Shown: positions 1-22,629, numbered from the stretch's first letter. The stretch: 64,000 bases of DNA from a virus (IMGVR_UViG_3300006217_000028); one strand, 5' to 3'. Notes: generated from the letters alone by a model not told the origin. Numbers and translations: made by a program.

Positions 1-74
1 AATTTACCTCACACCTCAAACTGAGCTCCACAACCTCTGCCAATCTAAAAAGCACTTTCAAGGGCTTGTTCGCG

Positions 75-3000: not shown

Positions 3001-6000
3001 CGGGTGTTGGTGCCCTGGCCGGAGTAATACTTGCGCTGACGGCCGCTGATATCCTGAACGGAATTGCCTCCTGGATAACTGGAGGCTCATCGCTCTCGGA
3101 TTTCGCAGAACAGCTTGTCCCCTTTGGTGAGGCCATCGCGGCTTTCTCGGATGTGGTCGATGGGAAAATCAATGAGGGCGCTGTGTCCGCGGCAGCAAAC
3201 GCCGGAGCCATACTGGCTGAGCTGGCAGGCAATCTGCCCAACAGCGGCGGGGTCTTGGGTTGGATCATGGGCAATAACGACCTGGACGACTTTGCATCAA
3301 GGTTGGAGCCTTTCGCGGACGCTATTGTAACATTCTCGTCAAAAGTAGATGGTAAAGTCAGTGAGAGTGCGGTTCAGGCGGCAGCGAATGCTGGTGCAAC
3401 ATTAGCTGCTCTTGCGTCCGATTTGCCTAACACTGGCGGCGTACTCGGCTGGCTTGTGGGCGAAAACAACATCGATGATTTTGCGTCTCGACTGGTTCCG
3501 TTTGGAGAGGCTATTGCCGAGTTTTCATCCACGGTAAACGGAAAGGTCAGCGAAAGTGCCGTACAGGCTGCCGCTAATGCCGGCGCTACTTTGACCGCTC
3601 TTGCGAAGGATATTCCAAACAGCGGAGGGGTCTTGGGTTGGATTATGGGCGAAAACGACATTGATGCGTTTGGCTCACAACTGATTTCTTTCGGGGAGAA
3701 CTTTGCCGCCTACTCCGACAAAATGAGCAGCGTTGATTCAAATATCGTTACCGCGACTACAAATGCCGCGAAAGCTCTTGTATCATTGAGCAACAGCCTC
3801 CCTGAAAAGGGCGGATGGTTCTCTGGAGATATGAGCCTTTCTGACTTTGGCAGCGATATTTCCTTATTTGGCTCTTTCTTTGCCGGATTCTACAGTTCCA
3901 TAAGCGGGATTGACCCTTCGACTTTATCGGCGGTTATCGCCGAATTTGAGAAGATGGTATCTTTAGCAAATGGCGCGAGCAGCGTTGACTTTACCGGGAT
4001 GTCTACCTTTGGCCAGTCTTTGACCAATCTTGGGCAGGCTGGTGTCAATGGCTTTATCAAAGCGTTTACTGACGCTATGCCGCGTGTGAATGTACAAGGC
4101 GCTGCTTTGATTACCAATGCAAAAAACGGAGTTCAAACAGGGGTGTCTGGTTTCTACTCCCTTGGTATTAACGCCGGCCAAGGCTTTATCAATGGTCTCT
4201 ATGCCATGAACGGTCCTGCTTGGTCCGCGGGCTGGAGTATTGGCAACGCTGCACTCATGGCCGCAAAAGCCGCTCTGGACAGCCACTCTCCTTCCCGAGA
4301 GTTCATCTATTTGGGGCAGCATACCGGCGAGGGCTATGTGATTGGCGTTAATAATAGTATTGGTTCTGTCAAGAATGCTACATCGGCGATGATGAACCAA
4401 TCGATTGCTACCGCCAAAAAAGGAATCAACACCTTCGAGGACTGGCTGGATGAGCGGAAATACTACAACGAAATCTCCATCAAAGAAGAGCTTGCCGGTT
4501 GGGAACAGCTCCAGAAACAGTACAAGGAAGGTTCCGAGGAACGCAAGAAAATCGACCGGGAAGTGTTCCGTTGTCAAAATGAGCTTGTTAAAGCGACTTA
4601 TCAGTTCTCTGTTGACTGGATTGAAAAAGAGAAGTATTATAAGCGGCTCAGTCTGGAGGACGAGCTTGCCGCATGGAAACGGGTTCAGTCCCGGTATATG
4701 GCGGGCTCCGAGGAACGCAAACAAGCTGACCGGGAAGTGTTCCGGGTCGAGAATGAGCTGGAAGACGAGCGCTACCAGAAGAGACTTGACCACATCGACA
4801 ACGAGGTATTCTATGGCCGCATGAGTGTTCAGGAAGAATTGGCCGCTCTGGAAGAACTTCAGAAACAGTATGAAGTGAACTCCGAGAAATACCTTGAAAT
4901 CGATAAAATGATCTACTCCAAACGGAAAGAGGTCGTTAAGGAGTTTTACGATAATCTCAACGAGTACATCAATAACGAGAAGACGTATAACCGGATGGGT
5001 GATATAGGCGAGCTTGGCACAATCCTTGCGTATATTGACCAGTTCGAAGAAGGCACCGACGAATGGAAAAAGGGCATGACGGCGGCGTACAATCTGGTTA
5101 TTTCCATAGGCGAAGCGCAGCTCCAGTATGAAAAGGACGTGGCCGCTGCCGAAGCGGATCACGCTGAGAAACGCCTGCAACTGGAACGAGAGTATGCTGA
5201 CTATGTAAAAGAGGTCAATCAACAGCTTGAGGCAGATATAGAAAGCCTTAACAAGAAGTATGAGGATGCCGTCCAGTCCCGAGCCGACAGCCTGTACCGG
5301 TCTTATGGGCTGTTCGATGAGGTAAAACAGAAGGATGACGTAAGCGGCGATACGCTTATCAACAACCTGAAGGGCCAGGTCGCCGAGTTTGACGAATGGC
5401 AAGCTATGCTGAAGTCTCTTGCTGCCAAAGGTGTCAGCGGCGAATTGATTGAGGAACTTCAGGAGATGGGGCCGTCCTCGATTGCCAACGTCCGTGCCCT
5501 GAACGGTATGACCTCTACCCAGCTCACCCAGTATGTGAATCTTTGGTCCACAAAGCACCGTCAGGCCAAAGACCAGGCAACCAGTGAACTGGAAGGAATG
5601 CGGGTCGAAACCCAGAAACAGATTGCACAGCTCAAGGTTGATGCGGCAAATGACCTGGAGGAGTACAAGAAAGTCTGGCAGACAAAAATGTCCGAGTTGG
5701 ACGCCTCCTTACAGAAGACGCTTAAAGATCTGGAAACGGATTTCCATAAGTCTATTGGCCTGATTTCAAAATACACCCAGGAAGAGCTTAACACAATGGC
5801 TGGGAACGTCAGTCAGCTTTTGGGCGAAAAAGGGTTCAATATTGGAACAAATCTACTTCAGGGAATCATCAAGGGGTTTGAAGAGGAAAAACCCAACTTG
5901 ATTAACGCTTCAAAAGCTGTTGCGGCTAACATTGTAGATCCTATCGAAGGAGAACTGGATATCCATTCTCCTTCCCGGGTTACATATCAATTAGCGGTGT

Positions 6001-6479
6001 TTGCGGTACGCGGGTTCGTTAATGCTCTTAATGATATGTGCCCGAGCGTATATGACGCGAGTAATAACCTTGCCGAGGCATCCAGTGAAGGTATTGGAAA
6101 AGCTATCCAGTATATGATGCGGCTGCTTGATGGCGACATCGAAACACAGCCAACGATTCGTCCAGTGCTGGATTTGTCTGATGTGTCAAGTGCGGCAGCC
6201 AAGCTGGATAACCTGCTTTATGCAGAACGAACCGCACGGCTCGCAAGCGATCTTGAATTGAGTATGAACCGAAAATCTCCGGCGACGGGCAGAATTGTTA
6301 TAGACAACGGGGATGTGGTAGAGGCCATCCAAGATCTCAGGCGGGATATGGCTGCCATGTCAGACGCAGTCACGCATATGCAGGTAGTCTTGGACACAGG
6401 TGTTCTCGCTGGCGAAATGACCGGGCCTTTGGACAGGAATCTTGGCCGCAGGCAAATCTATAGAGGAAGGGGGAACTGA
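75..6479 (+). CDS. Tail tape measure protein (about 2135 aa). The reading frame is open back to nt 1, so the true start may lie upstream of the window; TTG at 66 and ATG at 75 are candidate starts.
   Basis: Very long ORF. Tandem hydrophobic repeats (about 6 copies of LSWDELGKGLLGIGVLLGEI-like units at nt 1150-2100). About 4 copies of DDFASRLVPFGEAIAEFSS...VDGKVSESAVQAAANAGATL (nt 3060-3700). Coiled-coil repeats YYxxxSxxEELAxWExLQKQY (nt 4450-4900). Two HSPSREF / IHSPSR motifs typical of TMP C-terminal regions. Lies immediately upstream of Dit/Tal. Confidence 0.85.
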   Translation: MLDIVGQAFSAVFHAAKPLLGIFGNLSGGVLGVTGSWGEWLVNLDESIRKNDTFGKAIQKVIDLVKGAKTAVDEFVQNAKDKFNLPTLDEMKVSVKDFVKSLKENFKLPGFESFHSALEKAHKNLSSLSNIARSVKNAVANVFKSIGKAAADFDIAHAFQSILGGITTFIGGIAKIVSGLIKDVFTNIGQADLGGLFQLAGAFATGGIGIGIKKFFDSMSDAFGGVDDLFDSADGMLKKVTGILDGVKDCFKAYQTELKASALLKIAGAIGILALSLTAIAGIDAEKLNGALGAITILFTDLMASMAIFSKISGEMKGATKTTTLMLGLAVSIRILVSALKSVAELEWEDIGKGLLGVTVLMGEMVAALKLLGSDGKKVGKGATNVLVFAAAIKVLASACKDLGQLSWDELGKGLLGIGVLLGEIDIFLNTAKFSGKTITTATGIVVLSAAIKILASACKDFGQMSWEGIAKGLGGIGVLLAEITAFTKLNGSAKGMVSTGVSLIAIGAAMKIFASAVSDFGQMSWEQIGKGLAAMGGALAEVAIAVNVMPKNMLSVGAGLVVVGAALEIISHVLGKMGGMSWEEIAKGLVVIGGALAELSIALNLMKGTLTGSAALLVASAAIAVLTPSLAILGAMSWEAIAKGLVTIAGAFTIMGVAGAVLGPLTPTILALSGAFALFGVGVAAIGVGLVAAGAGLSAIAVGLTALAAATAADVGAIVASLSLIVTGIADLIPVVIGKIGEGIVEFGKAIALGAPSLGEAAKAIILTLVDVLVECVPQIADGALQLIDGVLAALVQYTPSIVNSLFQFLILLLDGVADNLPALIQSAMNVIMAFFQGVVDALSGLDVDTLIKGVAGVGIMSAMMFALSAVASLVPGALIGVAGMAAVIAEMALLLAAIGGLAQIPGLNWLITEGGNLLQNVGTAIGQFIGGIAGGFMTGVSSQFPQIATDLSNFMTNLQPFIDGARGIDSSMMAGVGALAGVILALTAADILNGIASWITGGSSLSDFAEQLVPFGEAIAAFSDVVDGKINEGAVSAAANAGAILAELAGNLPNSGGVLGWIMGNNDLDDFASRLEPFADAIVTFSSKVDGKVSESAVQAAANAGATLAALASDLPNTGGVLGWLVGENNIDDFASRLVPFGEAIAEFSSTVNGKVSESAVQAAANAGATLTALAKDIPNSGGVLGWIMGENDIDAFGSQLISFGENFAAYSDKMSSVDSNIVTATTNAAKALVSLSNSLPEKGGWFSGDMSLSDFGSDISLFGSFFAGFYSSISGIDPSTLSAVIAEFEKMVSLANGASSVDFTGMSTFGQSLTNLGQAGVNGFIKAFTDAMPRVNVQGAALITNAKNGVQTGVSGFYSLGINAGQGFINGLYAMNGPAWSAGWSIGNAALMAAKAALDSHSPSREFIYLGQHTGEGYVIGVNNSIGSVKNATSAMMNQSIATAKKGINTFEDWLDERKYYNEISIKEELAGWEQLQKQYKEGSEERKKIDREVFRCQNELVKATYQFSVDWIEKEKYYKRLSLEDELAAWKRVQSRYMAGSEERKQADREVFRVENELEDERYQKRLDHIDNEVFYGRMSVQEELAALEELQKQYEVNSEKYLEIDKMIYSKRKEVVKEFYDNLNEYINNEKTYNRMGDIGELGTILAYIDQFEEGTDEWKKGMTAAYNLVISIGEAQLQYEKDVAAAEADHAEKRLQLEREYADYVKEVNQQLEADIESLNKKYEDAVQSRADSLYRSYGLFDEVKQKDDVSGDTLINNLKGQVAEFDEWQAMLKSLAAKGVSGELIEELQEMGPSSIANVRALNGMTSTQLTQYVNLWSTKHRQAKDQATSELEGMRVETQKQIAQLKVDAANDLEEYKKVWQTKMSELDASLQKTLKDLETDFHKSIGLISKYTQEELNTMAGNVSQLLGEKGFNIGTNLLQGIIKGFEEEKPNLINASKAVAANIVDPIEGELDIHSPSRVTYQLAVFAVRGFVNALNDMCPSVYDASNNLAEASSEGIGKAIQYMMRLLDGDIETQPTIRPVLDLSDVSSAAAKLDNLLYAERTARLASDLELSMNRKSPATGRIVIDNGDVVEAIQDLRRDMAAMSDAVTHMQVVLDTGVLAGEMTGPLDRNLGRRQIYRGRGN

Positions 6480-6480
6480 G

Positions 6481-7257
6481 ATGTCAAAAGAATCCAAGCA
6501 ATACCATTCTGTCATTTTCGGGGAAAAGAACTCCTGGGATGATTGGCACCTGATCCCCACCTCCCGGCCGGTGTTCAATCCGCCCAAACCGAAGCTCAAA
6601 ACCGTGGATGTTCCAGGTGGGGACGGCCTTCTGGATGTTTCCGAGCTCCTCACCGGATATCCGGTTTATGAGAACCGCACAGGTTCCATTGAGTTTATGG
6701 TCCATAACGGATATGAGGAATGGCAGGTGGCCTATTCGAACATCATGGACTATCTTCACGGGCAAAGGCTCCGGGCCGTTCTGGAAGACGACCCTGATTA
6801 TTTCTACGAGGGCCGCTATTCAGTCAACATCTGGAAATCAGATAAGTCCCACTCTTTGATTACCATTGACTACAGCGTAAACCCCTACAAGCAGTCCGTT
6901 CTCTCTACCACGGATGAATGGCTGTGGGACCCGTTTAATTTCCACACAGGCATGGCTCTGACAAGGACCTTCAAAAACATTCCGGTTACTGAAATCTATG
7001 AGCCCCACCACTTCATAGACGACATTATGGGCCGGGCTCCGGTATGCCCTACTTTCGATATCCAAACCGAAACAGGAGGCGGAATCTATATCCGTTTCGT
7101 GAATGAGCATTTGGATATTGACATTGAAAAACATGCTCCGGATGGGAAAAGACGCTATCCGGAGTTTGTCTTTCGTGGAAAAGCGCCGGTCATCTACTTC
7201 AAGACTGTAACCGGCCGGGGCACTGTGTCGGTAGATTACCGTTCAGGGAGGTTGTGA
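6481..7257 (+). CDS. Distal tail protein (Dit)-like phage tail family protein
   Basis: 259-aa ORF directly after the TMP in the position conserved for Dit in siphoviruses. ATG 6481 is preceded by GGAAGGGGGAA. The ORF-track start at 6442 overlaps the TMP and lacks an RBS. Confidence 0.55.
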   Translation: MSKESKQYHSVIFGEKNSWDDWHLIPTSRPVFNPPKPKLKTVDVPGGDGLLDVSELLTGYPVYENRTGSIEFMVHNGYEEWQVAYSNIMDYLHGQRLRAVLEDDPDYFYEGRYSVNIWKSDKSHSLITIDYSVNPYKQSVLSTTDEWLWDPFNFHTGMALTRTFKNIPVTEIYEPHHFIDDIMGRAPVCPTFDIQTETGGGIYIRFVNEHLDIDIEKHAPDGKRRYPEFVFRGKAPVIYFKTVTGRGTVSVDYRSGRL

Positions 7258-7259
7258 GT

Positions 7260-9935
7260 ATGTACAGTATTTATGCGGACGGGGTCTGCTTTTACAACGA
7301 TGCTTTCGCCCTGGAAGAACTGGCGGTGCTGGAGCCTAAGCTCACCATGGAGGACAACGCGGCCGGCTCTTTTAGTTTCAAGCTGCCGCAGAGCAATACC
7401 GCCTATGATTCGTTTGTCCGGCTTGCCACTGATATTTCTGTGTGTAAGAATGGAAAGGAGATATGGGCCGGTCGGGTGCTCACGGAAGATATGGATTTCT
7501 GGAACAACCGCAGTATTTATTGCGAGGGAGAGCTGGCGTTCTTCAATGACAGTTCCCAGCTGCAAAAGAAATACCACGGTACCATTCGCGGCTTTCTGGA
7601 AGCAATTATCGATGTCCATAACCAGCAGGTCAAGGCCAACCGGCAGTTTCAAGTGGGAGCGGTCACGGTTCAATTGGACGATCCCGCCGACTTTCTCACA
7701 GACTACCAGAAAACCATGGAGGTGGTCAACAGCTTGGTGGAAGCCTATGGCGGACACCTGCGTATCCGTAAGGTTGACGGAATCCGTTATCTGGACTATC
7801 TCTCAGACGACTCGCTGGAGGGAATCGACCAGTTGATTCAGTTTGGAGAAAATCTGCTGGATTTCACCAAGTCCTGGGATTCCACTGAGTATGCAACCGC
7901 CCTACTGCCTCTGGGTTCCAGAAATACCGGAGGAGCCTCCGATTCAGGCGGCAGTTCGGAAGAAGAACTCAGCGCCTACTACCTGACTGTGGAAAGCGTG
8001 AACGACGGTAAGCTCTATGTGGAAAATACCGCGGCCGTGGCCAAATACGGATGGATTGAGCGTGTGATTCGCTATGACGATGAGACGGACCCAGCGGCTC
8101 TGCTCAGCAAGGCAAAAAGCTATCTGAGCCAATTTCAAAATGGAGAAGTCACAGTGGTACTGCCCTATGGTGCGTTCCTTGGAACAACAGAAGAGGAGCC
8201 GGAGACGGATGAAACCATAACAGGCCTGGAATCCTATGTTACGGTGGAGAGCGTCAATCAGGGCAGTATCTTTGTGTCATCCTCCGAGCTGGTGGACAAG
8301 TACGGCTGGATTATCCAGATTGTCAACTTCGACGACGCCAGCGAGCCGGCCGAGCTGTTAGAGCGGGCGAAGAAGTACCTGCTGGACCTGCAATTCGACG
8401 CCATGCAGCTGGAGCTGAGTGCACTGGACCTGCATTATCTGAACCCGGAAATCAAAGACATCCGGCTGCTGGACAAAATCCGGGTGCTGTCCCGTCCCCA
8501 CCAGTTGGATGCCTGGTTTACGCTCACCCGGCTGGAAATTCCTCTGGATTCCCCGGAGAGTTCTAAGTTCATCCTGGGGGACACCGTCAAGACCTCATTG
8601 ACACAGGTCAACAACCAGATCAATACGGATTTGACAAAGAAGATCAATACCCTCCCCAAAGCCCATGATATTCTGGATGAGGCCAAGGAGAACGCGGTAC
8701 AGATCATTCAATCCGCTACCACAGGCCATATCACCATTACCCAAAACCAGCAAGGGGCGGACACCCTCTACATTTCTGAGGGAATGGACTATACCAAGTC
8801 CCAGCGCCTTTGGATATGGAACATGGGCGGCCTGGCTTATTCCAAGGATGGAGGCAAAACCGTTGAGGTCGCTATGACCATGGACGGCTCGATTACGGCC
8901 AATTTCATCACCGTAGGTACCATGGCCGCAGACCGTATCCGCACAGGACTTCTTCAATCCGAGAATGACAACTTCACTCTCAATCTGAACGACGGTACGC
9001 TGACCATGAAAAAAGGCTCCATTGATATAGGCGGCAAATTCACCGTTACCGATGAAGGACACCTGACTGCTAACGAGGCCACTATCATCGGTACAATCCG
9101 GGCATCCGCCGGTAGTATAGGCGGGCTGACCATCGACCCGGACGGTAAGCTCTACTCCAACAGCGGTAACTTGTATATCGGAGTCAACGGCTCGAATACC
9201 AACACGGAACGGGAGTATGCGTTCTGGACAGGAAACCCAACGCCTGGGAACGCGCCGTTCTGGGTAAAGAAAAACGGTGAGCTGTACGCCAGTAAAGGTA
9301 CATTCAGCGGCCGGCTGGAAGCGGCTACCGGCAATTTCCTCGGCGTGGTGCAGGCCAGCGACTTTCTGGACCGCAACGGCAACAGCATGTTCACAAGCCA
9401 GAACAAGTTTAAGGCCGACTATCTTGACCTATACGGGTTAACGGTCAGAAACAAATCCACGGGCCTGATTACATTCCAGGTGGACAAGAACGGCAAGGTT
9501 GCCATCAATGGCGACATCACTATGGGAGCGGCCAGTACCATTGACTGGGCCCTGGTGACCAACGTGAACATCAATTCCAACCCCGCCTATTCGCTGGCTC
9601 AGCAGGCCAAAAATGCCATTCCCAGTTACATTAAGTCAACACATATCAATGCGGTTACGATAGAGTCTCCTACGCTTCGCGGGGAAGAAATCAATGTAAT
9701 CGCGGGGAAGGAACGCGGCAGTTTCAATCTGTACGCTACGTATGGTTCCCGCCTTTATCACATGTTTACGATTGATTACTGGGAAGGAATGTCGCCGGAA
9801 GTTCATCTGTACAGTCCCGCTGACGCGGATATGTATTTCGGTAAAGATGGATATTGCTTTATCTATTTTATCGGGGATGTTTCGTTTGAAGGAACGGTCG
9901 ATTTTTCAAGGGCTACCGTAAAAGGTTTGAAATAA
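7260..9935 (+). CDS. Tail-associated lysin / tail tip protein (Tal-like minor structural protein)
   Basis: 891 aa, third gene of the TMP-Dit-Tal trio. Internal duplicated about 50-aa module (YLTVESVNDGKLYVENTAAVAKYGWIERVIRYDDETDPAALLSKAKSYL / YVTVESVNQGSIFVSSSELVDKYGWIIQIVNFDDASEPAELLERAKKYL). RBS GGGAGG before ATG 7260; GTG 7254 is an alternative start. Confidence 0.55.
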   Translation: MYSIYADGVCFYNDAFALEELAVLEPKLTMEDNAAGSFSFKLPQSNTAYDSFVRLATDISVCKNGKEIWAGRVLTEDMDFWNNRSIYCEGELAFFNDSSQLQKKYHGTIRGFLEAIIDVHNQQVKANRQFQVGAVTVQLDDPADFLTDYQKTMEVVNSLVEAYGGHLRIRKVDGIRYLDYLSDDSLEGIDQLIQFGENLLDFTKSWDSTEYATALLPLGSRNTGGASDSGGSSEEELSAYYLTVESVNDGKLYVENTAAVAKYGWIERVIRYDDETDPAALLSKAKSYLSQFQNGEVTVVLPYGAFLGTTEEEPETDETITGLESYVTVESVNQGSIFVSSSELVDKYGWIIQIVNFDDASEPAELLERAKKYLLDLQFDAMQLELSALDLHYLNPEIKDIRLLDKIRVLSRPHQLDAWFTLTRLEIPLDSPESSKFILGDTVKTSLTQVNNQINTDLTKKINTLPKAHDILDEAKENAVQIIQSATTGHITITQNQQGADTLYISEGMDYTKSQRLWIWNMGGLAYSKDGGKTVEVAMTMDGSITANFITVGTMAADRIRTGLLQSENDNFTLNLNDGTLTMKKGSIDIGGKFTVTDEGHLTANEATIIGTIRASAGSIGGLTIDPDGKLYSNSGNLYIGVNGSNTNTEREYAFWTGNPTPGNAPFWVKKNGELYASKGTFSGRLEAATGNFLGVVQASDFLDRNGNSMFTSQNKFKADYLDLYGLTVRNKSTGLITFQVDKNGKVAINGDITMGAASTIDWALVTNVNINSNPAYSLAQQAKNAIPSYIKSTHINAVTIESPTLRGEEINVIAGKERGSFNLYATYGSRLYHMFTIDYWEGMSPEVHLYSPADADMYFGKDGYCFIYFIGDVSFEGTVDFSRATVKGLK

Positions 9936-9956: not shown

Positions 9957-10346
9957 ATGAAGAGAACTCTTAAAAACTCGGTTATGGTTGACATGCTCAT
10001 GCAGCTGAAACCGCTGCTTTCCCGACGTGACAAGATTGGCTATGCCGCTGCCCGGAATCATCGCAGGCTGGCCGAGTGCTTGACCGAGTATGAACGGTTC
10101 CGCAACAGTCTGATTGAGAAGTACGGTGAGTATGAGAAAGATGAGCACGGGAACGAACTCCCGTCAATCTCCCTGAGCTCTACTTCGCCCAATTTCAAAA
10201 TGTTTCTGAGCGAGCTCGCCCCTTACAATGAAATGGAGCATGAGGTGGAACTTATGGAGCTGCCCTACAGTGAGGTAATCGGCAGTTTGTCAGGAGAAGA
10301 AATCCTCGCGATTGACTGGATGCTGGTAGATGGGGAGGAAGAGTAA
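9957..10346 (+). CDS. Hypothetical phage protein (129 aa)
   Basis: Strong RBS AAGGAGG. Stop overlaps the next start (TAATG). Sits in the tail module. Confidence 0.5.
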   Translation: MKRTLKNSVMVDMLMQLKPLLSRRDKIGYAAARNHRRLAECLTEYERFRNSLIEKYGEYEKDEHGNELPSISLSSTSPNFKMFLSELAPYNEMEHEVELMELPYSEVIGSLSGEEILAIDWMLVDGEEE

Positions 10347-11449
10347 TGGCAGATATTTCTTCACAGCTCCAAAAAATACTGGAAGCCATATATGGCGAAG
10401 AGGTCCGAGGTTCTATCCATGACGCTCTGGCGGCCATGAATGTGGAATCCAACGCCGCCATGGAGTTTGCGGCTACGGCAAAGGATTCCGCTATGAACAG
10501 CGCTGCTGCCGCAAAGGCATCAGAGGAGAAAGCAGCCCTGTCCGAATCAGCAGCCAAAGAATCCGAAACTAACGCCGCTGCATCAGAGCAAGCAGCGTTT
10601 GAAAGCGCGTCAGAATCTATTGACGCGGCAAATGCCGCTAAAAATTCTGAAATAAATTCCGCCGCATCCGAGGCCGCAGCTAAGGCATCCGAAACCAATG
10701 CCGCCAACTCCGAATCAGCAGCAAAAGAATCGGAGACTAACGCTGCCGTATCGGCAGCCACTGCTACAGAGAAAGCGGCGGCATCCTCCGCCTCAGCAGA
10801 GGCCGCAAAAGCGTCCGAGGAAAAAGCCGCCGTATCAGAGAATGCCGCTAAGACTTCGGAGACCAACGCCGCATCCTCTGCCTCCACCGCGTCTGAAAAA
10901 GCGGCCGAGGCGTCTTCTTCCGCGTCTGCCGCAAAGGTTTCCGAAGCGAACGCCTCTGATTCTGAAGTGGCCGCGAAAAAGTCAGAGGTTAACGCGTCCG
11001 CATCCGCCAATGCCGCTGCGGCAAGCGAAACAAACGCAAAGGCCTCTGAAACAAGCGCCGCTCAATCTGCCGCTCACGCCATACAGGAGAGAGAAGACTA
11101 CTCCCAATGGGTGGAACAGCAGGAGGCCGCTTTTACTCAGTGGTTCGATGGTATTAAGGAACAATTTGGCGACGACGTTGCGGGCAATCTTACCAACCAG
11201 ATTAACAAAGAAGAAATCGACAGAATCCTGAGTGCGGGTTTTGCGGACGGCGTCAAGGAGTTCAGTGAGGACGGCACAACTATCACCATGACCGCTCCGG
11301 ATGGCCGGACTCTTACCAAGACCTTCACCAACAGCTTTCAGACCATGACGGCTGTTCTCAGGAAAGCCGATAAGACCGTTGCTGCCACACTGACAAAAGA
11401 GTTTGCGGCAGACGGAAGTACAATCAGCACGACTATAACCTACTCATGA
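10346..11449 (+). CDS. Structural protein with Ala/Ser/Glu-rich low-complexity repeats (putative fibre shaft or stalk)
   Basis: 367 aa. The central 200 aa are 10-11-residue repeats (AAKxSETNAAxSExAAKESETNAA). Globular N- and C-terminal ends. Located between Tal and the DGR-targeted fibre gene. Confidence 0.5.
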   Translation: MADISSQLQKILEAIYGEEVRGSIHDALAAMNVESNAAMEFAATAKDSAMNSAAAAKASEEKAALSESAAKESETNAAASEQAAFESASESIDAANAAKNSEINSAASEAAAKASETNAANSESAAKESETNAAVSAATATEKAAASSASAEAAKASEEKAAVSENAAKTSETNAASSASTASEKAAEASSSASAAKVSEANASDSEVAAKKSEVNASASANAAAASETNAKASETSAAQSAAHAIQEREDYSQWVEQQEAAFTQWFDGIKEQFGDDVAGNLTNQINKEEIDRILSAGFADGVKEFSEDGTTITMTAPDGRTLTKTFTNSFQTMTAVLRKADKTVAATLTKEFAADGSTISTTITYS

Positions 11450-11465
11450 AAGGAGAGAATTCAAA

Positions 11466-13976
11466 ATGGCAGAAGAAGATATGCTCTACGGCAAAGCACG
11501 GCATCTTTTCGGCGGCATCGAGCCGTCCAACATGAAAGCTTTTTCCGTAACCGCACCGGGCAGCGGTAGGCCGGTTATCACAGCGGTTCTGCCGGACAAT
11601 ACCGTTATCGATGGTCAGACCCTGTGTACTGTGGCGGGGGCCGTGATTCGCAAAAAGTCCACCGGCTACCCCAAGGACGAGTTCGATGGGGAGAAGGTAG
11701 CGGAAATCGCGGAATCTACTACCTTCACAGACGTCACTGCCAATGCGGACGGCACCTATTATTACGCGGCTTATCCGTTTACCACGCAGGGTGTATATAA
11801 CCGCAACCCGGCTAACCGGGCCGTGTTCAACGAACCAGAGCCTATGGCTGCTTTCACTTCCCGACTGGTATACAGTTCCGCGTCCCAGACCTCCCATGTG
11901 GAGCTGACCGCCACTCTGCCTCGGGGTGCGGCCGGAGCGGTGATTCGTAAATCCACCGTGGGCTATCCACAGGACGAGGAAGACGGCGAGGCGTTCCAGA
12001 ACATCACCGCCAGCACGGTTATCACAGACACAGACGTGGAAGAGGACGTCACCTATTACTATAGCGCCTTTGTCTACACCAGTACCGGAGCTTACAACCG
12101 AGACCCGGCCAACCGGACAAGCTGCACCGTATACGCGGGAGAAGCCCCGGACGACATGGCCGCTTTCAGTGTTGTATGCGACGCGGTCAATCAGGCGAAA
12201 ATCACGGCAACTCTTCCTGGCAACAAGACCGAAGGTGATGTTGAGATTTGCACTGTGGCCGGCGCCATTATTCGCCGCAAGACAGGCAGCTACCCAGTCA
12301 ACGAGACGGACGGCGAGGAAGTTACCGATTTGAAACAGAGCGGTACTTACACCGATATGGGCCTGACCGGCGATACAATCTACTATTACGCCGCTTTCCC
12401 CTACTCCGACCGGGGGATGTTCAACCGTAACCAGACTGCGGAAAATCAGGCAAGCTGTAAGGTGTTCGCTCCGGTTGCTCCCGGCAATATGAAAACATTC
12501 TCTGCCAGTTCCGCGGCCGCCGGCAAAATTGTCCTGACCGCCACTCTGCCGGACAATACCGTAGAGAGCGGGGTGACTACCAGTGCCGTGGCGGGCGTTA
12601 TGATCCGCAGGAAGCTGGACGGCTATCCCGCCAATGAAACAGATGGGACCCTGGTGGCAAACCTGACCGAGAGCGGAACCTACACGGATACGGACATTGT
12701 GGGCGGGCAGATGTACTACTATGGGGCGTTCCCCTATTCCGACAAAGGCCTGTACAATCAAAATGCGGTTCCGGACAATCAGGCCAGCGCCGAGGGTAAG
12801 ACCTATGAGTATCTCTATGGCTATGACCTGGACACTGCCAACAGCAATCCGGCTACCCGGGTCACTTACCCCGCAGACGTGGACAACACGGGCTTTGCCG
12901 CGGCAAAGATGGGAACCAGCGCGTTTAACTATGGCGGCTGGCCCAGCACTCCGGGCGAGAAATTCATGCCCAGGCCCTGTATGCTGACTTTTGCGGGAAA
13001 AGTAGACCACTACCTGAACCCCAATGACTATACAAAGAAAACAGATGGCACGGCCTCTAAAGTTGCGGATACATCCTTTGGCGGAAACGCCATGATGGAA
13101 TGGCCCAAAATCTTTGTAAAGCGTTGGCAGGAGGGCAATATCTACCACTTCCGTGTCTCTGATGTGAAGCTGGATGACGATTTCGAGTGCTGGTCCAACT
13201 ATGACCTCCAGAATCATGAGATTGAGCACTTCTACACGCCAATCTTCTTCGGCTCCAATGTTTCCAGTAAACTTCGCTCCATCAGTGGCCAGGCGAACAG
13301 CGTGTCGACTACTGCTGACCAGGAAATCACCTATGCCAAGGCAAACGGCGCGGACTGGTACACCGAGGTTGTGGCGGACCGTATGCTAATCAACGACTTG
13401 CTGACCATGATGGCCAAGTCTACCGATTTGCAGACCGCGTATGGCTCCGGCAGAACAAAGAGTTCCAACAGCAGCGCGATAGCTCCTGGTACCATGAACA
13501 CAAAAGGAATGTTCTGGGGTTCCACGAATGGTACGGACGGCGTCAAGGTTTTTGGCATGGAAAACTGGTGGGGGAACATTTGGCGGCGTATTGCCGGGTG
13601 GATGCTGGTAAATAGCGTTCAGAAAGTCAAGCTGACTCGCGGAACGAAAGACGGAACTACCGCAGCCGATTATAATACTACCGGCGATGGATATAAGTCT
13701 CTGAGTAATGCTGCGCCTACTGGTTCCAGCGGCGGCTACATTTCAAAATGTAAAACCGAGAAGTTTGGGCGGTTCCCATACGAGTTGTCGGGTTCGGCCA
13801 CAACCTTTGAGTGTGATGCTATGTGGTATTCCACTGGAACACGATACGCGTATGTCGGCGGCGGCTGGAACGATTACCTTCGAGCGGGTCCCTTCTGCGT
13901 GAACCTGGACAATGCGCCGTCGTACTCCAACTCGAGCCGTGGCGCGGCCCTCTCTTGTAAACCGCTTGCGGCCTAG
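11466..13976 (+). CDS. DGR target protein: putative receptor-binding tail fibre with 4-5 tandem about 100-aa Ig/FN3-like repeats and a C-terminal VR-bearing C-type-lectin/FGE-like domain
   Basis: 836 aa. Repeats such as TATLPDNTVxxG..CTVAGAxIRxKxxGYPxxExDGxxV...GTYTD....YYYAAFPYxxxGxxNRN occur 4-5 times (nt 11520-12790). The last about 37 codons are the DGR variable repeat, with ...YAYVGGGWNDYLRAGPFCVNLDNAPSYSNSSRGAAL reminiscent of CLec/FGE-fold VR scaffolds. Confidence 0.75.
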   Translation: MAEEDMLYGKARHLFGGIEPSNMKAFSVTAPGSGRPVITAVLPDNTVIDGQTLCTVAGAVIRKKSTGYPKDEFDGEKVAEIAESTTFTDVTANADGTYYYAAYPFTTQGVYNRNPANRAVFNEPEPMAAFTSRLVYSSASQTSHVELTATLPRGAAGAVIRKSTVGYPQDEEDGEAFQNITASTVITDTDVEEDVTYYYSAFVYTSTGAYNRDPANRTSCTVYAGEAPDDMAAFSVVCDAVNQAKITATLPGNKTEGDVEICTVAGAIIRRKTGSYPVNETDGEEVTDLKQSGTYTDMGLTGDTIYYYAAFPYSDRGMFNRNQTAENQASCKVFAPVAPGNMKTFSASSAAAGKIVLTATLPDNTVESGVTTSAVAGVMIRRKLDGYPANETDGTLVANLTESGTYTDTDIVGGQMYYYGAFPYSDKGLYNQNAVPDNQASAEGKTYEYLYGYDLDTANSNPATRVTYPADVDNTGFAAAKMGTSAFNYGGWPSTPGEKFMPRPCMLTFAGKVDHYLNPNDYTKKTDGTASKVADTSFGGNAMMEWPKIFVKRWQEGNIYHFRVSDVKLDDDFECWSNYDLQNHEIEHFYTPIFFGSNVSSKLRSISGQANSVSTTADQEITYAKANGADWYTEVVADRMLINDLLTMMAKSTDLQTAYGSGRTKSSNSSAIAPGTMNTKGMFWGSTNGTDGVKVFGMENWWGNIWRRIAGWMLVNSVQKVKLTRGTKDGTTAADYNTTGDGYKSLSNAAPTGSSGGYISKCKTEKFGRFPYELSGSATTFECDAMWYSTGTRYAYVGGGWNDYLRAGPFCVNLDNAPSYSNSSRGAALSCKPLAA
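13837..13947 (+). repeat. DGR variable repeat (VR), 3-prime end of the fibre gene
   Basis: About 111 bp roughly 88 percent identical to 14428-14538. At the differing positions the template copy has A, while this copy has G, T or C. Confidence 0.8.
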
Positions 13977-13992
13977 GAGAGGTCTGGAGAAC
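13975..13992 (+). promoter_or_regulatory. Perfect 18-bp palindrome GGAGAACCTAGGTTCTCC just after the VR and fibre stop (possible hairpin/cruciform target-recognition element)
   Basis: Its reverse complement equals itself. Lies 27 bp after the VR homology ends. No following T-run, so it is not a classic terminator. Confidence 0.5.
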
Positions 13993-14019
13993 CTAGGTTC
14001 TCCGGGAAAACGATGGCTA

Positions 14020-14343
14020 CTAGAGCATGGACGCTAGGCATTTAAGTTCGGCTACTTCATCCGCAGTTATTTCAGCGTCATCCCACTCTGAGACTTCAAC
14101 GGCGTGCATGGCGAATGCCGCGTATAGTTTCGGATCGTCCTTGATTTTGTTGACGAATAGTGACGCGCGATTTAATGCGGATTTGTTCATGGCCATCATG
14201 TCTTGTTGGGAAATGCTATATTTTACATGCACGTCTTCGATAACCTGTCTGAAGATGTAGCTGGCCAGTGCTTTTGCGTGAGCATCCGGTATGCTGTATG
14301 CTGTTCGTAAGAATAAAGCGCCCAGTTCATCCATAAGTTCCAT
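14020..14343 (-). CDS. Hypothetical 107-aa helical protein encoded antisense between VR and TR (candidate DGR accessory gene; not recognisably Avd)
   Basis: Clean ORF on the minus strand. The overlapping + strand ORF (14027-14260) is Ser-rich and looks spurious. The protein is acidic and helical, unlike basic Avd proteins. Confidence 0.4.
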   Translation of the reverse strand: MELMDELGALFLRTAYSIPDAHAKALASYIFRQVIEDVHVKYSISQQDMMAMNKSALNRASLFVNKIKDDPKLYAAFAMHAVEVSEWDDAEITADEVAELKCLASML

Positions 14344-14427
14344 CTCCTTGCTGCTTTTTCATAGATTATATCATTCTGTGGAAAAAGATGCAAGGTTCTG
14401 ATTTTAGGGGTATGCGCTGCGCCTGCG

Positions 14428-14538
14428 CGCGTATGTCGGCGGCAACTGGAACAATAACCTTCAAGCGGGTCCCTTCTACGTGAACCTGAACAATGCGCCG
14501 TCGAACTCCAACTCGAACATTGGCGCGGCCCAATCTTA
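14428..14538 (+). repeat. DGR template repeat (TR)
   Basis: Non-coding copy of the VR placed 130 bp upstream of the RT gene. Rich in AAC/AAT codons in the VR frame (AAC TGG AAC AAT AAC ... AAC TCC AAC TCG AAC ATT). About 14 mismatches to the VR, 13 of them at TR adenines. Confidence 0.8.
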
Positions 14539-14670
14539 TCCAATACATGGTAATATGTTTCTCGATTTTTAATGCAGCGCATATTCCTCACCCCTTGGTG
14601 AAAATCAACTCGATGCAAGCGCCTGCCGGTAGCTGAAAAAGGACGAAAGCGGGCGAGAGGATAAGAGAGA

Positions 14671-15774
14671 ATGAAATCCTACACTCACTTGTATGAAATA
14701 TGTACATCCGAACAAAACAGAATAAGAAGCGTGCAGTCGGCCAAGAAGAGCAAGCGTATCCGAAACATCATCAAGGCCCGGCATTTGTCTGACGCGGCTC
14801 TGGCGGAAAAATCCCGTGATTGGATTATCAATTACGAGATCAAGGAGCATGACCCCATTTATATTTTAGATGGGATCAGCCATAAGCAGCGGACAATCTA
14901 TGTGCCGACCTTGGAAGAGCTTATTGTCCAGCACTGCGTAGTGAACGCTCTCAAGCCCATGTTCTATAAAGGTATGTATGAGCACAGCTATGCCAGTCTG
15001 CCGGGACGAGGCTCCCACAAAGCCAAAAAGGTCATTGAGAAGTGGATTCGCACTGACGGGAAGAATGTAAAGTATGTCTTAAAAATGGACATCAGGCATT
15101 TCTTTGACAGCGTTCCCCACGATGTTCTCAAGGCAAAGCTCTCCAAACACATTCATGACGAGCTTATGCTGGATTTGCTGTTTAAGATTATTGACACCAC
15201 GGACGAGGGGATTCCTCTGGGGTTTCACACCTCCCAGTGGCTGGCAAACTGGTTCCTGCAAGGATTGGACCATTACATCAAGGAACAGCTCCAAGCAGCC
15301 CATTATGTCCGGTATATGGATGATATGGTGATTTTCGGCAGCAATAAAAAAGCCCTCCACAAGATGCGTCAGGCAATTTCGGAGTATCTTGGAAAAGAGC
15401 TTGGTCTTGCGTTAAAAGGAAATTGGCAGGTGTTCCGGTTCTCCTATGTGAAGAATGGCGAATACCTGGGGAGAGACCTTGACTTTATGGGATTCCGGTT
15501 TTACCGGGACCACACTGTTTTGCGGAGAAGTATCATGTACAAGGCCAGTAGGAAAGCGAAAAAACTTGCGTCAAAGGCCAGACCAACTGTTTACGACGCC
15601 CGGCAGATGCTATCGTATCTTGGCTGGATCAAGTCCACAGACACCTATTCTATGTATTCAAAATGGATTAAACCTTACGTCAACTTCAAGAACTTGAAAC
15701 GAAAGGTATCCAAGTCTGACAAGAATAATCCCTTACAGATATATTACCGGCTGGCGAGGGTTTATCAAACATAA
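14671..15774 (+). CDS. DGR reverse transcriptase
   Basis: 367 aa. RT motifs RTIYVPTLEELIVQHCVVNALKP (motifs 1-2). GIPLGFHTSQWLANWFL matches the DGR-specific (I/L)GxxxSQ form of the QGxxxSP motif. YVRYMDDMVIFG is the YxDD catalytic motif. The size is typical of DGR RTs. Confidence 0.85.
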   Translation: MKSYTHLYEICTSEQNRIRSVQSAKKSKRIRNIIKARHLSDAALAEKSRDWIINYEIKEHDPIYILDGISHKQRTIYVPTLEELIVQHCVVNALKPMFYKGMYEHSYASLPGRGSHKAKKVIEKWIRTDGKNVKYVLKMDIRHFFDSVPHDVLKAKLSKHIHDELMLDLLFKIIDTTDEGIPLGFHTSQWLANWFLQGLDHYIKEQLQAAHYVRYMDDMVIFGSNKKALHKMRQAISEYLGKELGLALKGNWQVFRFSYVKNGEYLGRDLDFMGFRFYRDHTVLRRSIMYKASRKAKKLASKARPTVYDARQMLSYLGWIKSTDTYSMYSKWIKPYVNFKNLKRKVSKSDKNNPLQIYYRLARVYQT

Positions 15775-16216: not shown

Positions 16217-16354
16217 ATGGTAAACATCTACTGTACGCTTATCATCAATAAGCGAAGGAACTTTGATGATATCCGGGAGGACTTCAAAGAAAAAGTAAAA
16301 GCCCGACTGAAAGAACTCGGTTACGATACCAATGGCGACAAGCTGGAGGCGTGA
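16217..16354 (+). CDS. Small protein (45 aa), paralogue of 16402-16533
   Basis: MVNIYCTLIINKRRNFDDIREDFKEKVKARLKELGYDTNGDKLEA. Matches the IINGRRSFDKVPDKFKDAVRADLEALG motif of the next ORF. Confidence 0.4.
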   Translation: MVNIYCTLIINKRRNFDDIREDFKEKVKARLKELGYDTNGDKLEA

Positions 16355-16401
16355 CCGTGCTTTTTTATATTTTAACTAAACTTCTGATTGGAGGTAACAA
16401 C

Positions 16402-16533
16402 ATGGTTGCATTGTATGTAGCGCTCATTATCAACGGCAGGCGGTCTTTCGATAAGGTGCCCGACAAGTTCAAGGATGCGGTCAGGGCTGACCTGGAGGCC
16501 CTGGGCCTTACCGAGAACGGCGCCCCGGTGTAA
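16402..16533 (+). CDS. Small protein (43 aa), paralogue of 16217-16354
   Basis: RBS GGAGGT before the internal ATG of track ORF 16351-16533. Confidence 0.45.
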   Translation: MVALYVALIINGRRSFDKVPDKFKDAVRADLEALGLTENGAPV

Positions 16534-16970: not shown

Positions 16971-17306
16971 ATGGAAGGTGAATTCATTTCACGAGCTGAG
17001 CACGAGGAGTTCCGGCGCAGTATGGACGCCGAGCACCAGCGTCTGGAAGACGAAAATAACCGTCAGAACCGCCGCTTAGAAATCCTGGAAAGCGCCACTA
17101 AACAAATCGGGGACATTTCTACATCGGTAGAAAAGCTAGCTCTGAACATGGAGAATATGCTTAAGGAGCAGATTTCCCAGGGTAAACGCTTGACCGTGCT
17201 GGAGAGCCAGGATGGGCAGAAGTGGCGTCAGTTTGTGGGATATATCTTTGCAGCCGCTGTGGGTGTTATTGTCGGCTTTTTGTTTAAGCAGGCCGGGATT
17301 TTTTAA
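16971..17306 (+). CDS. XhlA-family haemolysin-like lysis-associated membrane protein
   Basis: 111 aa. N-terminal coiled coil (RRLEILESATKQIGDISTSVEKLALNMENMLKEQ) plus a C-terminal transmembrane helix (FVGYIFAAAVGVIVGFLF). Sits next to the holin. Confidence 0.6.
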   Translation: MEGEFISRAEHEEFRRSMDAEHQRLEDENNRQNRRLEILESATKQIGDISTSVEKLALNMENMLKEQISQGKRLTVLESQDGQKWRQFVGYIFAAAVGVIVGFLFKQAGIF

Positions 17307-17338: not shown

Positions 17339-17590
17339 ATGGATTTTGGAAAGGCAATCGAGGCTGTAAAGGCGGGTAGGAAAGCATCCCGCGCTGGATG
17401 GAACGGCAAAGGCCAGTATATCGAGCTGGCTGCCTGCGTCAGCTATAAAAATGCAGCCGGAGAAATCATCAACGTAAACCATGACGCGCTCGGCAACAAT
17501 GCGATTGCGTTTGTCGGTACTTCCGGCGTGCAGCTCGGTTGGCTGGCCTCTCAGGCAGATATGCTTGCCGAGGATTGGCAGATTCTGTAA
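17339..17590 (+). CDS. DUF2829-like phage protein
   Basis: MDFGKAIEAVKAGRKASRAGWNGKGQYI... is the characteristic DUF2829 N-terminus. Confidence 0.5.
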   Translation: MDFGKAIEAVKAGRKASRAGWNGKGQYIELAACVSYKNAAGEIINVNHDALGNNAIAFVGTSGVQLGWLASQADMLAEDWQIL

Positions 17591-18166: not shown

Positions 18167-18427
18167 ATGAACATCAACTGGAAAGTGCGCATCGCGAACA
18201 AGCAGTTCTGGTTCTCGCTGGTACCGGCGATTCTGCTGGTTATCCAGGCTGGCGCGGCCATCTTTGGTTATACTGTGAATTTCGGCGAGCTTGGGAACAG
18301 CCTGCTGGCCTTTGTGGACGCAGTGTTCGTTATCCTGGTGCTGCTGGGCATCGTCAATGACCCCACCACCGCCGGGTACGGTGACAGTCATCGGGCAAGG
18401 CATTACGAGACTCCTTGGGAGGATTAG
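18167..18427 (+). CDS. Holin (phi-LC3 / LL-H type)
   Basis: MNINWKVRIANKQFWFSLVPAILLVIQAGAAIFG...LGIVNDPTTAGYGDS. N-terminal NWK motif, transmembrane helices, and the conserved VNDPTT segment of this holin family. Confidence 0.75.
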   Translation: MNINWKVRIANKQFWFSLVPAILLVIQAGAAIFGYTVNFGELGNSLLAFVDAVFVILVLLGIVNDPTTAGYGDSHRARHYETPWED

Positions 18428-21030: not shown

Positions 21031-22218
21031 ATGCCGAGCAGCAAAAAGACCGCCAATGGCGGCGGCAGTATCCGTAAGAAGACCGTGATGAAAAAGGGAA
21101 AAGAGTACATATATTGGGAAGCCCGTGTGACTGTCGGAGCTGATCCAATGACCGGAAAGCAGAGGCAGCGCTCCATTACAGGTAAGACCCAGCAAGAGGT
21201 TGCTCAAAAACTGAGGCAGCTTACCGCTGAAATAGACAACGGGACTTATCGCGAACCCTCTAAGATGACCGTAGGGGAGTGGTTGGATACTTGGCAGGAA
21301 CAGTATCTCAACGACCTAAAGCCTCTTACCAAAGAGATGTACGCGACCGCTGTCCGTATCCATCTGAAACCCGCCTTGGGGATGAAGAAATTAGACGCCT
21401 TGCTGCCGGCTGATATTCAACGGTTTTACAACTCCCTGATGCAAGGTGAAAAGCCTCTGTCGGCTAAGACCATAAAGAACATCCATGGGATTTTCCATAG
21501 GGCTTTGCAACAGGCCCTTGACTTAGGTTATCTTCGCAACAACCCCGCAAACCCATGCAGGCTTCCGAGAGTCGAGAAACCGATTATTCACACGCTTGAC
21601 GATGTGAGCACCAAGAAGTTTCTAAAAGCGATACAAGGCCATCGTTTTGAAAACCTCTTCCTCGTGACGCTGTTTACCGGGTTGCGTGAGGGAGAGGCTC
21701 TTGGGTTAAAATGGGATTGTGTGGACTTTACTGGCAGCTCTCTCTTGGTCGGGAGACAGCTCCAGCGTAAACGAGACGGCTCAAGTCAATACTACCTGAT
21801 TTCTCCGAAGAACGGCAAGTTTCGCAAAGTCGTCCTGGCTCCTTTCGTGTTGGATATTCTTCACAGGCAAAGAGCCGAACAGGAGATATGGAAACGCATC
21901 GCTGGTAAAAGCTGGATGGATACCGGGCTGGTATTCACGGATGAACTGGGTGACAATCTCACGCCTGAAACAGTCTATAAGAACTTCAAGAAGATTGCCA
22001 TTGAGATTGGATGCGAATCTCTGCATTTCCACAGTCTCAGACATTCCTACGCAGTAGCTGCCCTCCACAGCGGGGATGACATCAAGACTGTGCAGGAGAA
22101 TCTTGGGCACTACACGGCAGCCTTTACTTTGGATGTGTATGGACATGTTACCGACAAGATGAGGCAGGACAGCGCCGACCGTATGCAGAAATATATTGAT
22201 ATTCTACATGACGAGTAA
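21031..22218 (+). CDS. int: Tyrosine-type site-specific integrase
   Basis: 395 aa. The C-terminal catalytic region HSLRHSYAVAALHSGDDIKTVQENLGHYTAAFTLDVYGHV (R..H..R....Y) is the classic phage integrase signature. N-terminal SAM-like and core-binding domains. Confidence 0.9.
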   Translation: MPSSKKTANGGGSIRKKTVMKKGKEYIYWEARVTVGADPMTGKQRQRSITGKTQQEVAQKLRQLTAEIDNGTYREPSKMTVGEWLDTWQEQYLNDLKPLTKEMYATAVRIHLKPALGMKKLDALLPADIQRFYNSLMQGEKPLSAKTIKNIHGIFHRALQQALDLGYLRNNPANPCRLPRVEKPIIHTLDDVSTKKFLKAIQGHRFENLFLVTLFTGLREGEALGLKWDCVDFTGSSLLVGRQLQRKRDGSSQYYLISPKNGKFRKVVLAPFVLDILHRQRAEQEIWKRIAGKSWMDTGLVFTDELGDNLTPETVYKNFKKIAIEIGCESLHFHSLRHSYAVAALHSGDDIKTVQENLGHYTAAFTLDVYGHVTDKMRQDSADRMQKYIDILHDE

Positions 22219-22580: not shown

Positions 22581-22629
22581 ATTGAGAACATCGTCCGAAT
22601 TCTATCCTAGATTAAAGGAGAGCTCGGGT

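Follow-up and report, generated by a model that had tools for sequence, protein, structure and literature searches.

The whole stretch of viral DNA considered here, a window of 64,000 nucleotides (IMGVR_UViG_3300006217_000028), carries a reverse transcriptase (RT) gene next to two similar repeats and a large tail gene. The question that this locus raises is whether these parts form a diversity-generating retroelement (DGR) and, if so, by what machinery and on what target it would act. A first-pass annotation had described a complete DGR that diversifies the C-terminus of a tail fiber, with a variable repeat (VR) in the 836-aa target, a template repeat (TR) starting at 14428 and an RT gene at 14671–15774, all on one strand. 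These three parts are indeed present, and the target open reading frame (ORF), the TR and the RT ORF all lie on the + strand; the word “complete” holds for RT, TR and VR but not for the accessory gene avd, which was not found in the window. The locus is very probably a minimal, Avd-less DGR of a temperate siphovirus-like phage of Oscillospiraceae (Acutalibacter-type hosts). Its core parts are:

11466–13976, + strand: DGR target gene, an ORF for a tail protein of 836 aa
13847–13940, + strand: diversified part of the VR, 14 variable codons (residues 796–825), from the ungapped alignment to TR positions 14428–14521
14428–14539, + strand: TR, non-coding, with 28 adenines
14671–15774, + strand: DGR-type reverse transcriptase, 367 aa, isoelectric point (pI) 9.8, matching RVT_1, phrog_1423 and 8ub7_A

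The repeat pair carries the adenine-specific type of difference that is expected of a DGR. Without gaps, VR and TR align best at an offset of 581, which gives 91/111 matches (41 for the runner-up) and places the full VR at 13847–13958, with its end 15 nt before the stop codon. The VR had previously been placed at 13837–13947; the repeat exists, but these limits are 10 nt off, and the offset of 591 that they imply gives ~23% identity. The two repeats differ at 14 of 112 nt (87.5% identity), and 13 of these mismatches fall on TR adenines; over 113 nt, 13 of the 15 mismatches are at the 28 adenines, so that the substitutions, when tabulated by TR base, are adenine-specific (hypergeometric P = 7.6e-8). 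The earlier count of 13 in 14 is therefore right, but three of the 13 (13951, 13952, and 13957) are fixed and do not result from diversification. In the diversified part (13847–13940), 10 of the 11 mismatches are at TR adenines. At the non-A positions of the TR, the VR matches 83/84, while the next best site on either strand of the 64-kb window matches only 39/84; the element thus has a single target, and the similarity of the pair far exceeds what chance would give. No second VR was found on either strand of the window. When the TR is read in the VR frame, 10 of its codons are AAY, in agreement with its initial description as rich in asparagine-type codons, and 14 codons of the diversified part contain adenine. 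The theoretical repertoire is ~1.8e14 proteins, and adenine mutagenesis of the TR never yields a stop codon.

The same signature extends to relatives of the element. Relatives of the RT number 326 in IMG/VR and 113 in species-representative genomes; the latter belong mostly to Oscillospiraceae, Lachnospiraceae, and other Clostridia, and the closest genome relatives are a mouse-gut Oscillospiraceae metagenome-assembled genome and Acutalibacter sp. 1XD8-36. When the locus was compared by Megablast with 50,697 deposited phage genomes, no match was obtained. TR/VR pairs in the relatives were located with an adenine-tolerant scan, since plain blastn gave only short fragments, a consequence of the dense mismatches at A sites. 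A pair of 109–113 nt was present in 69 loci, each with 11–24 A mismatches and 0–2 non-A mismatches. Summed over these 69 loci, TR adenines are mismatched in 1188/1901 cases (62%) versus 53/5827 (0.9%) for the other bases, and 36 of the 53 non-A mismatches lie at the repeat boundary or in a fixed column of the initiation of mutagenic homing (IMH) element. Across the columns that correspond to the diversified part of the window VR, variation in these loci is limited to sites at which the TR carries A.

Close relatives also provide information on the direction of copying. The VR of one related locus (L081, from SRR18233571) differs from that of the window at 21 positions in 112 nt, 18 of them at A sites, and its flanks show 11 differences in 400 nt upstream and one in 280 nt downstream. 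A second locus (L086) has flanks 97.7% identical to those of the window and a TR that differs from the window TR at 11 positions; its VR equals its own TR at every non-A position (17 A mismatches, 0 non-A). More generally, only a few positions distinguish the TRs of close relatives, and outside the A sites each VR agrees with the TR of the same locus. VR polymorphism in the related genomes is confined to A sites, a check proposed in the first-pass annotation. As read from the sequences, the L086 pattern is direct evidence of TR-to-VR copying in the window lineage; as a property of DGRs, information transfer from TR to VR is here established by comparison and, in that sense, indirectly.

The RT belongs to the same picture. 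Its ORF matches Pfam RVT_1 (3e-20) and phrog_1423 (2e-105) and contains the motifs PLGFHTSQ and YMDD. Among all PDB sequences, the best match is 8ub7_A, a 328-aa reverse transcriptase (E 6e-29) whose numbering (R74, I181, Q187) fits the published RT of the Bordetella phage, bRT. In bRT, I181 and Q187 are the first and last residues of the [I/V/L]GxxxSQ motif, which is QGxxxSP otherwise (PMC7826257). Aligned to bRT, the window RT keeps R74, has L183 at the place of I181 and Q189 at that of Q187, and has YMDD, so that both [I/V/L]GxxxSQ and YxDD are present. If the RT instead came from another retroelement (a group II intron, a retron, or a defense-associated RT), the repeat pair would be an ordinary diverged duplication. 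Weak matches in this direction exist, both in PDB (group II intron RTs at 1e-17, retron RTs at 1e-15 or weaker) and among profile models (group II TIGR04416 at 127 bits, Drt3a at 75 bits, and the PADLOC RT models). However, all NCBIfam matches are far under the curated cut-offs (300 for TIGR04416; 18–75 bits vs. 200–600 for the retron and Drt models), intron and retron RNA families were not found in the 64-kb window, in which RT-18 is the sole Rfam match, the motif is LGxxxSQ rather than QGxxxSP, and the mismatches are adenine-specific in the window as in the 69 relatives. Such an origin is so improbable as to be almost negligible. Considered individually, a group II intron was rejected on the Rfam scan, which contained no group II intron RNA, and on the TIGR04416 score (126.8 bits vs. 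the cut-off of 300); a retron or defense RT was rejected because its models score below cut-off, retron RNA was not found, and the neighbors are tail and lysis genes. These comparisons support the initial assignment of the RT to the DGR class, with bRT as the closest among solved structures.

At the N-terminus of the target, a conserved anchor is followed by four tandem repeats; next come a central domain and then the C-terminal domain, in which the VR lies:

13254–13973, + strand: C-terminal ligand-binding domain of 240 aa, with a predicted C-type-lectin (CLec)/formylglycine-generating enzyme (FGE)-like fold

Residues 398–835 match the PHROG “tail protein” family phrog_5302 (4e-108). As to the fold, Pfam, NCBIfam, and PDB sequence searches returned nothing. 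A profile of diverse homologues reached TaqVP, the variable protein of a Thermus aquaticus prophage DGR (PDB 5VF4), only at E 0.51; it placed the window VR region onto the TaqVP VR (limits from PMC6328139) in an alignment that is not significant. Matches to the C-terminal 240 aa were obtained in 2044 representative clusters, in proteins that differ greatly in length, and the domain is C-terminal in nearly all of the matches listed. A first AlphaFold model, made from 396 aa with 42 close homologues, failed, with a predicted local distance difference test (pLDDT) score of 43, and was replaced by a model of the 240 aa with 89 diverse representatives (pLDDT 95.8; predicted template modeling score 0.91). 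When this second model was compared with PDB by Foldseek, TaqVP was the best match (E 5.7e-8), followed by Mtd, formylglycine-generating enzymes, and TvpA, and all four solved DGR variable proteins were recovered. The high-confidence model agrees with the fold proposed in the first-pass annotation and supports the prediction that the target C-terminus has the CLec/FGE fold of known DGR variable proteins. The VR is accordingly located at the 3′ end of a gene, in a predicted fold of the variation-tolerant kind (CLec or immunoglobulin).

Two further observations concern this protein. Its N-terminal repeats, 4 × ~110 aa over residues ~20–470 (11523–12875), have the motif AGAVIRRK..GYP..E.DG......YYY.AFPY...G.YN and match no Pfam family. 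Separately, two clusters of target homologues at 90% identity (P0044 and P0062) have an unusually large number of distinct member sequences, 2464 and 5235, as DGR hypervariation of a conserved protein in public metagenomes would give.

The end of the VR has features of the kind that would give homing its direction:

13941–13958, + strand: IMH-like 3′ end of the VR, GC-rich GGCGCGGCCC followed by TCTCTTGT; the TR has AATCTTAT (IMH*-like) instead
13949–14005, + strand: two hairpins after or overlapping the VR end, from DNA folding and family comparison

The ten bases of GGCGCGGCCC are identical in VR and TR and directly precede the fixed differences. At repeat positions 105, 106, and 111 (13951, 13952, and 13957), family VRs have T, C (67/69), and G, and TRs have other bases; since these positions are the same across the family VRs, they are fixed differences of the IMH vs. 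IMH* type rather than traces of diversification. The residues encoded at the VR end are also conserved (GAALSCKPLA in eight sequences). Hairpin 1 has an outer stem CCTCTC/GAGAGG (13949–13982), which starts within the IMH-like end and encloses a small inner hairpin, and hairpin 2 is formed by GGAGAACC-TA-GGTTCTCC at 13984–14005. Folding energies of the window alone are not significant (z −0.3 downstream of the VR and z −0.4 for the TR and spacer), and the support for structure is comparative: the nested arrangement is found in ~50 distinct relatives, in which the inner hairpins vary in sequence and the pairing is kept. A GC-rich block and an IMH/IMH* distinction are known from the BPP-1 element (PMC5758913); judged by sequence, the window appears to have the full set of directionality elements, namely a GC-rich stretch, IMH vs. 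IMH*, and a downstream inverted repeat.

The TR is embedded in a structured RNA region, which extends up to the RT gene:

14406–14421, + strand: 5′ strand of the TR-bracketing duplex, AGGGGTATGCGCTGCG, pairing with 14573–14588
14573–14588, + strand: 3′ strand of the TR-bracketing duplex, TGCAGCGCATATTCCT
14589–14669, + strand: structured spacer RNA between TR and RT, Rfam RT-18 (RF03021), found by cmscan

The duplex is 16 bp long, with its 5′ strand just upstream of the TR and its 3′ strand 34 nt downstream. In 23 distinct family sequences, 88% of the cells are paired and six pairs are changed on both sides; these double changes amount to 26 cells, a value reached by 0/500 shuffles, and slid controls are 17–59% paired. 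Directly after the 3′ strand, RT-18 begins with a stem-loop (CACC-CCUU-GGUG) and an AAAA run. The match covers the full model (1–84 of 84) at 45.0 bits vs. a gathering threshold of 41.3, ends 1 nt before the RT start codon, and represents the only Rfam family in the window; a full-length RT-18 above threshold is therefore located beside the RT gene. RT-18 occurs at the same place in 13/14 related loci (42.6–53.4 bits), and its long stem shows compensatory changes by RNAalifold. Of the RT-associated motifs RT-1 to RT-19 of Weinberg et al., only RT-10, the BPP-1 spacer, was attributed to a DGR in that study, with speculation that others could be DGR parts as well (PMC5737381). In the cryo-EM structure of the bRT-Avd-RNA complex, a “cPRT Stop” consists of a duplex, a stem-loop, and adenosines, and it has been surveyed only in Avd-containing DGRs (bioRxiv 10.1101/2023.10.23.563531); the order of duplex, stem-loop, and adenosines in the window resembles it. 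A proximal TCTTAT/ATAAGA hairpin after the TR, present in many relatives, was considered as a required element and rejected, as it is absent from the window lineage.

Near the end of the spacer, the nearly invariant motif GGAUAAGA/GGATAAGA (14659–14666) is the exact complement, over 8 nt, of TCTTATCC across the TR end (14534–14541). By estimate, ~0.002 matches of an 8-mer to the TR-end site would be expected by chance within the 129-nt spacer. Both partners are nearly invariant, and covariation can consequently not test this pairing. It is hypothesized that the GGAUAAGA:TCTTATCC pairing is the counterpart of the template:primer duplex between TR and spacer (TR:Sp) in BPP-1 and that the spacer RNA would thereby be self-priming. 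As a separate observation, the AAGAGAG half of the spacer motif GGATAAGAGAG is also complementary to the VR-specific, IMH-like CTCTCTT (13951–13957). A bolder version of this idea, which we regard as speculative and very unlikely to be correct as a whole, is that, in this large Avd-less family, the RT-18 spacer takes over the positioning role that Avd has in BPP-1: GGAUAAGAGAG would pair with the TR end UCUUAUCC (8 bp) for self-priming and, via AAGAGAG, with CTCTCTT of the VR, and so could help to guide the RNA-cDNA complex to the target DNA. If true, this guidance would be an RNA-guided step in target recognition by DGRs.

On these grounds, the following course of events can be proposed for an Avd-less DGR. 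An RNA from ~14406 to the RT gene would be transcribed, in which the TR would be held between the 16-bp long-range duplex and the structured RT-18 spacer. The RT would copy the TR to cDNA, faithfully except at adenines, and the cDNA would replace the homologous VR at the 3′ end of the tail-protein gene, the direction being set by the GC-rich block and by the IMH-like end and hairpins that are found only at the VR. As a result, 14 codons, mostly AAY, would be randomized in the CLec-fold ligand-binding domain, which would presumably alter what the phage tail binds.

Several points weigh against this reading, and they concern the accessory protein, the space between the repeats, the recent activity of the element, and the role of its target. 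No family match to Avd or another known accessory gene was obtained among the 37 ORFs of the window, although Avd is poorly conserved and a very divergent one could be located elsewhere. The locus is accordingly not of the BPP-1 type (Architecture B, avd-TR-RT), in which Avd is a basic protein of ~128 aa (PF05635), and the Avd-dependent mechanism of BPP-1 cannot be transferred unchanged. Two ORFs were examined as accessory proteins and rejected: a reverse-strand ORF between the repeats, which is acidic, orphan, and without family match, and a 96-aa ORF after the RT, which is acidic (pI 4.5), matches phrog_20201 of unknown function, and is not supported by any evidence. Genes at the position of the latter are read as the tail-lysis junction, since XkdX-type and lysis genes follow the RT in phage FP_Epona.

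The reverse-strand ORF is part of an insertion:

14007–14400, − strand: inserted cassette of ~390 nt, lineage-specific, which separates the VR hairpins from the 5′ strand of the TR duplex

With its converging gene, this cassette parts VR and TR further than in relatives, which is a second unfavorable point: the VR-to-TR offset of 581 compares with 204–278 in ~70 relatives, and most relatives have only ~100 nt between VR and TR. The ORF (14020–14343, − strand) has a likely start at 14334, giving 104 aa (104–107 aa) with a pI of 4.8, and is preceded by an AAGGAG ribosome-binding site and by TGATATAAT, an extended −10 element. A search of 5.8 billion proteins yielded just three homologues, all near-identical to it, and there was no match in Pfam, PHROG, NCBIfam, or PADLOC. 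The same acidic orphan is present on the reverse strand in the window and in three relatives (L001, L081, and L083), and ~70 other relatives have nothing there. In L086, a different cassette occupies the same slot (2371–2730), with a forward 65-aa ORF and, by eye, promoter-like and terminator-like sequences. The VR-TR gap thus seems to be a slot, or insertion hotspot, for small moron-like cassettes within the DGR.

It is also conceivable that the element is a fossil or silent in this genome, that is, active in ancestors until homing stopped (e.g., through the cassette or a change near the priming site) and left the VR frozen. The evidence that bears on this possibility includes the only non-A mismatch, at TR 14520 (TR position 93), where the TR has T, the VR has G, and 63/69 relatives have A. 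This position is close to the 3′ end of the repeat, in sequence that each homing event should rewrite. This mismatch is best read as a TR mutation after the last homing (A-to-T being the simplest case) or as an RT error at a non-A base; the first option would mean that no homing has occurred in this genome since that mutation, and misincorporation at non-A bases, at a level of ~1%, is known from bRT itself (PMC7826257). Silence would likewise fit the loss of the TCTTAT/ATAAGA hairpin in the window lineage, which has CCAATACATGG instead, the transcription of the inserted gene toward the target gene, and the failure to detect a convincing promoter for the TR RNA in a promoter/terminator scan, in which nothing rose above shuffled expectation. 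However, the RT ORF is intact with all its motifs, as are the duplex, RT-18, the IMH, and the hairpins. In addition, TR position 29 (14456), which is G in most relatives, including the close relatives aligned with the window, is A in only 6/69 TRs, the window among them, and the VR has T there; and in L086 and L083, with the same spacer sequence and a cassette, the VRs perfectly track their own TR at non-A positions. A silent element is unlikely, and we infer that the Avd-less DGR is probably active at present in this exact genome. Independently of activity, the G-to-A change at 14456 creates a mutable site and the A-to-T change at 14520 removes one; together, positions 29 and 93 show that the TR itself is evolving and changing which codons diversify.

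A natural variant of the locus is found in a cultured strain. The prophage of Acutalibacter sp. 1XD8-36 (L088, NZ_QZDU01000001.1; also L002, 5556–7001) is 97–98% related to the window and has an in-frame deletion of window positions 10605–14890. The deletion removes the target gene, the VR, the TR, and the N-terminus of the RT, and leaves an N-terminal piece of the Ala-rich fiber-like protein (~84 aa) fused to RT residue ~76; its junction lies at the shared microhomology AAGCAGCG.

The labels “tail fiber” and “tropism switching” in the first-pass annotation have their basis in the position of the gene and its PHROG tail-protein annotation; synteny and annotation together suggest a receptor-binding role. 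A different possibility is that the target is an accessory adhesin (e.g., one that attaches reversibly to glycans of the host surface or to the gut environment) and not the primary receptor-binding protein, in which case the DGR would tune adherence and not tropism. This would fit the existence of a closely related, possibly non-viable prophage that lacks the target altogether. It would also fit the variable number of N-terminal repeats, four in the window vs. two in most relatives (614–617 aa), and the presence upstream of a fiber-like protein (10346–11449) and a large Prophage_tail protein, either of which could be a primary receptor binder. Moreover, the DGR targets of Faecalibacterium phages include non-tail, Hoc-like proteins (PMC11792537). 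By contrast, the gene matches PHROG tail-protein families and closes the tail module, with the lysis genes coming directly after this module; FP_Epona has the same arrangement, and its homologue is annotated as a “BPP-1-like major tropism determinant.” An accessory adhesin is a possibility to be taken seriously, if the less probable one; we infer that the diversified target probably serves in receptor binding.

The surroundings are those of a phage. Upstream of the target are the tape measure gene (66–6479), the Prophage_tail gene (7254–9935), and the gene of the Ala-rich fiber-like protein (10346–11449). Downstream of the target and RT, two small ORFs (16217–16354 and 16351–16533) have no family match, and the FP_Epona annotation gives XkdX at the homologous positions. 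They are followed by an ORF that matches the PHROG “hemolysin” family phrog_937 (16971–17306), a holin gene (18167–18427), and a tyrosine integrase gene (21031–22218). Between the DGR and the holin gene, an ORF of 83 aa (17339–17590, + strand) has a Thoeris anti-defense Tad2-like domain (PF11195, E 1e-21), with a homologue at the same place in L083. After the holin and integrase genes and a gene for a DUF6431 protein (22582–22944) come replication genes on the same strand; the window contains no tRNA genes. In its layout, the window looks more like the circularly permuted genome of a temperate phage than like a prophage integrated between host flanks.

Elements without an accessory gene have been described before. 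Architecture A, which has none, makes up 29% of the DGRs catalogued by Wu et al. (2018; PMC5758913), who also report an RT lineage without avd; DGRs are also frequent in Faecalibacterium phages (PMC11792537). The closest known arrangement is the accessory-free “Architecture A1” (target-TR-RT) of FP_Epona (MG711462) and of the Butyrivibrio phages Idris and Arawn, in which Avd is absent as in the window and the genes follow one another in the same order: tail genes, a target with a C-terminal VR, a non-coding TR, the RT, XkdX-like small genes, and lysis genes. The C-terminal region of the target is homologous in these phages, with 30–39% identity over 84–98% of a 396-aa query. Only the window, in this comparison, has the 390-nt cassette with its reverse-strand orphan and a target of 836 aa with four N-terminal repeats.

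The BPP-1 DGR (mtd-avd-TR-brt) shares with the window the adenine-specific differences, a TR rich in AAY codons, a GC block with IMH/IMH*, a hairpin downstream of the VR, the RT features [I/V/L]GxxxSQ and R74, and a duplex around the TR, formed by upstream sequence and spacer and followed by a stem-loop and adenosines. However, Avd is essential in BPP-1 and none was found in the window, its spacer RNA is RT-10 (PMC5737381) whereas that of the window is RT-18, its RT is only distantly related (alignment of residues 72–333), and the window target is much larger and has N-terminal repeat domains. The TaqVP element differs from that of the window in the sequence of its variable protein (15–18% identity), in having avd, and in host and phage type.

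All of the checks proposed in the first-pass annotation favored the DGR interpretation. The element is a well-formed member of a type of gut-phage DGR that is very common and has been described before, and as a DGR it adds little, since accessory-free phage DGRs acting on CLec-fold tail proteins are abundant in phages of gut Clostridia. What the locus contributes, the RNA anatomy of an Avd-less element, the assignment of RT-18, and the cassette slot, is useful but incremental: the orphan Rfam motif RT-18 is placed in a DGR spacer, and a “cPRT Stop”-like duplex that brackets the TR is kept in an Avd-less family. The cassette insertions between VR and TR and the deletion variant in a cultured Acutalibacter strain provide natural comparisons for the role of the element and its target. 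This family, for which over 300 related viral contigs and over 3000 target homologues are available, is a well-populated example in which to ask how DGRs work without Avd.

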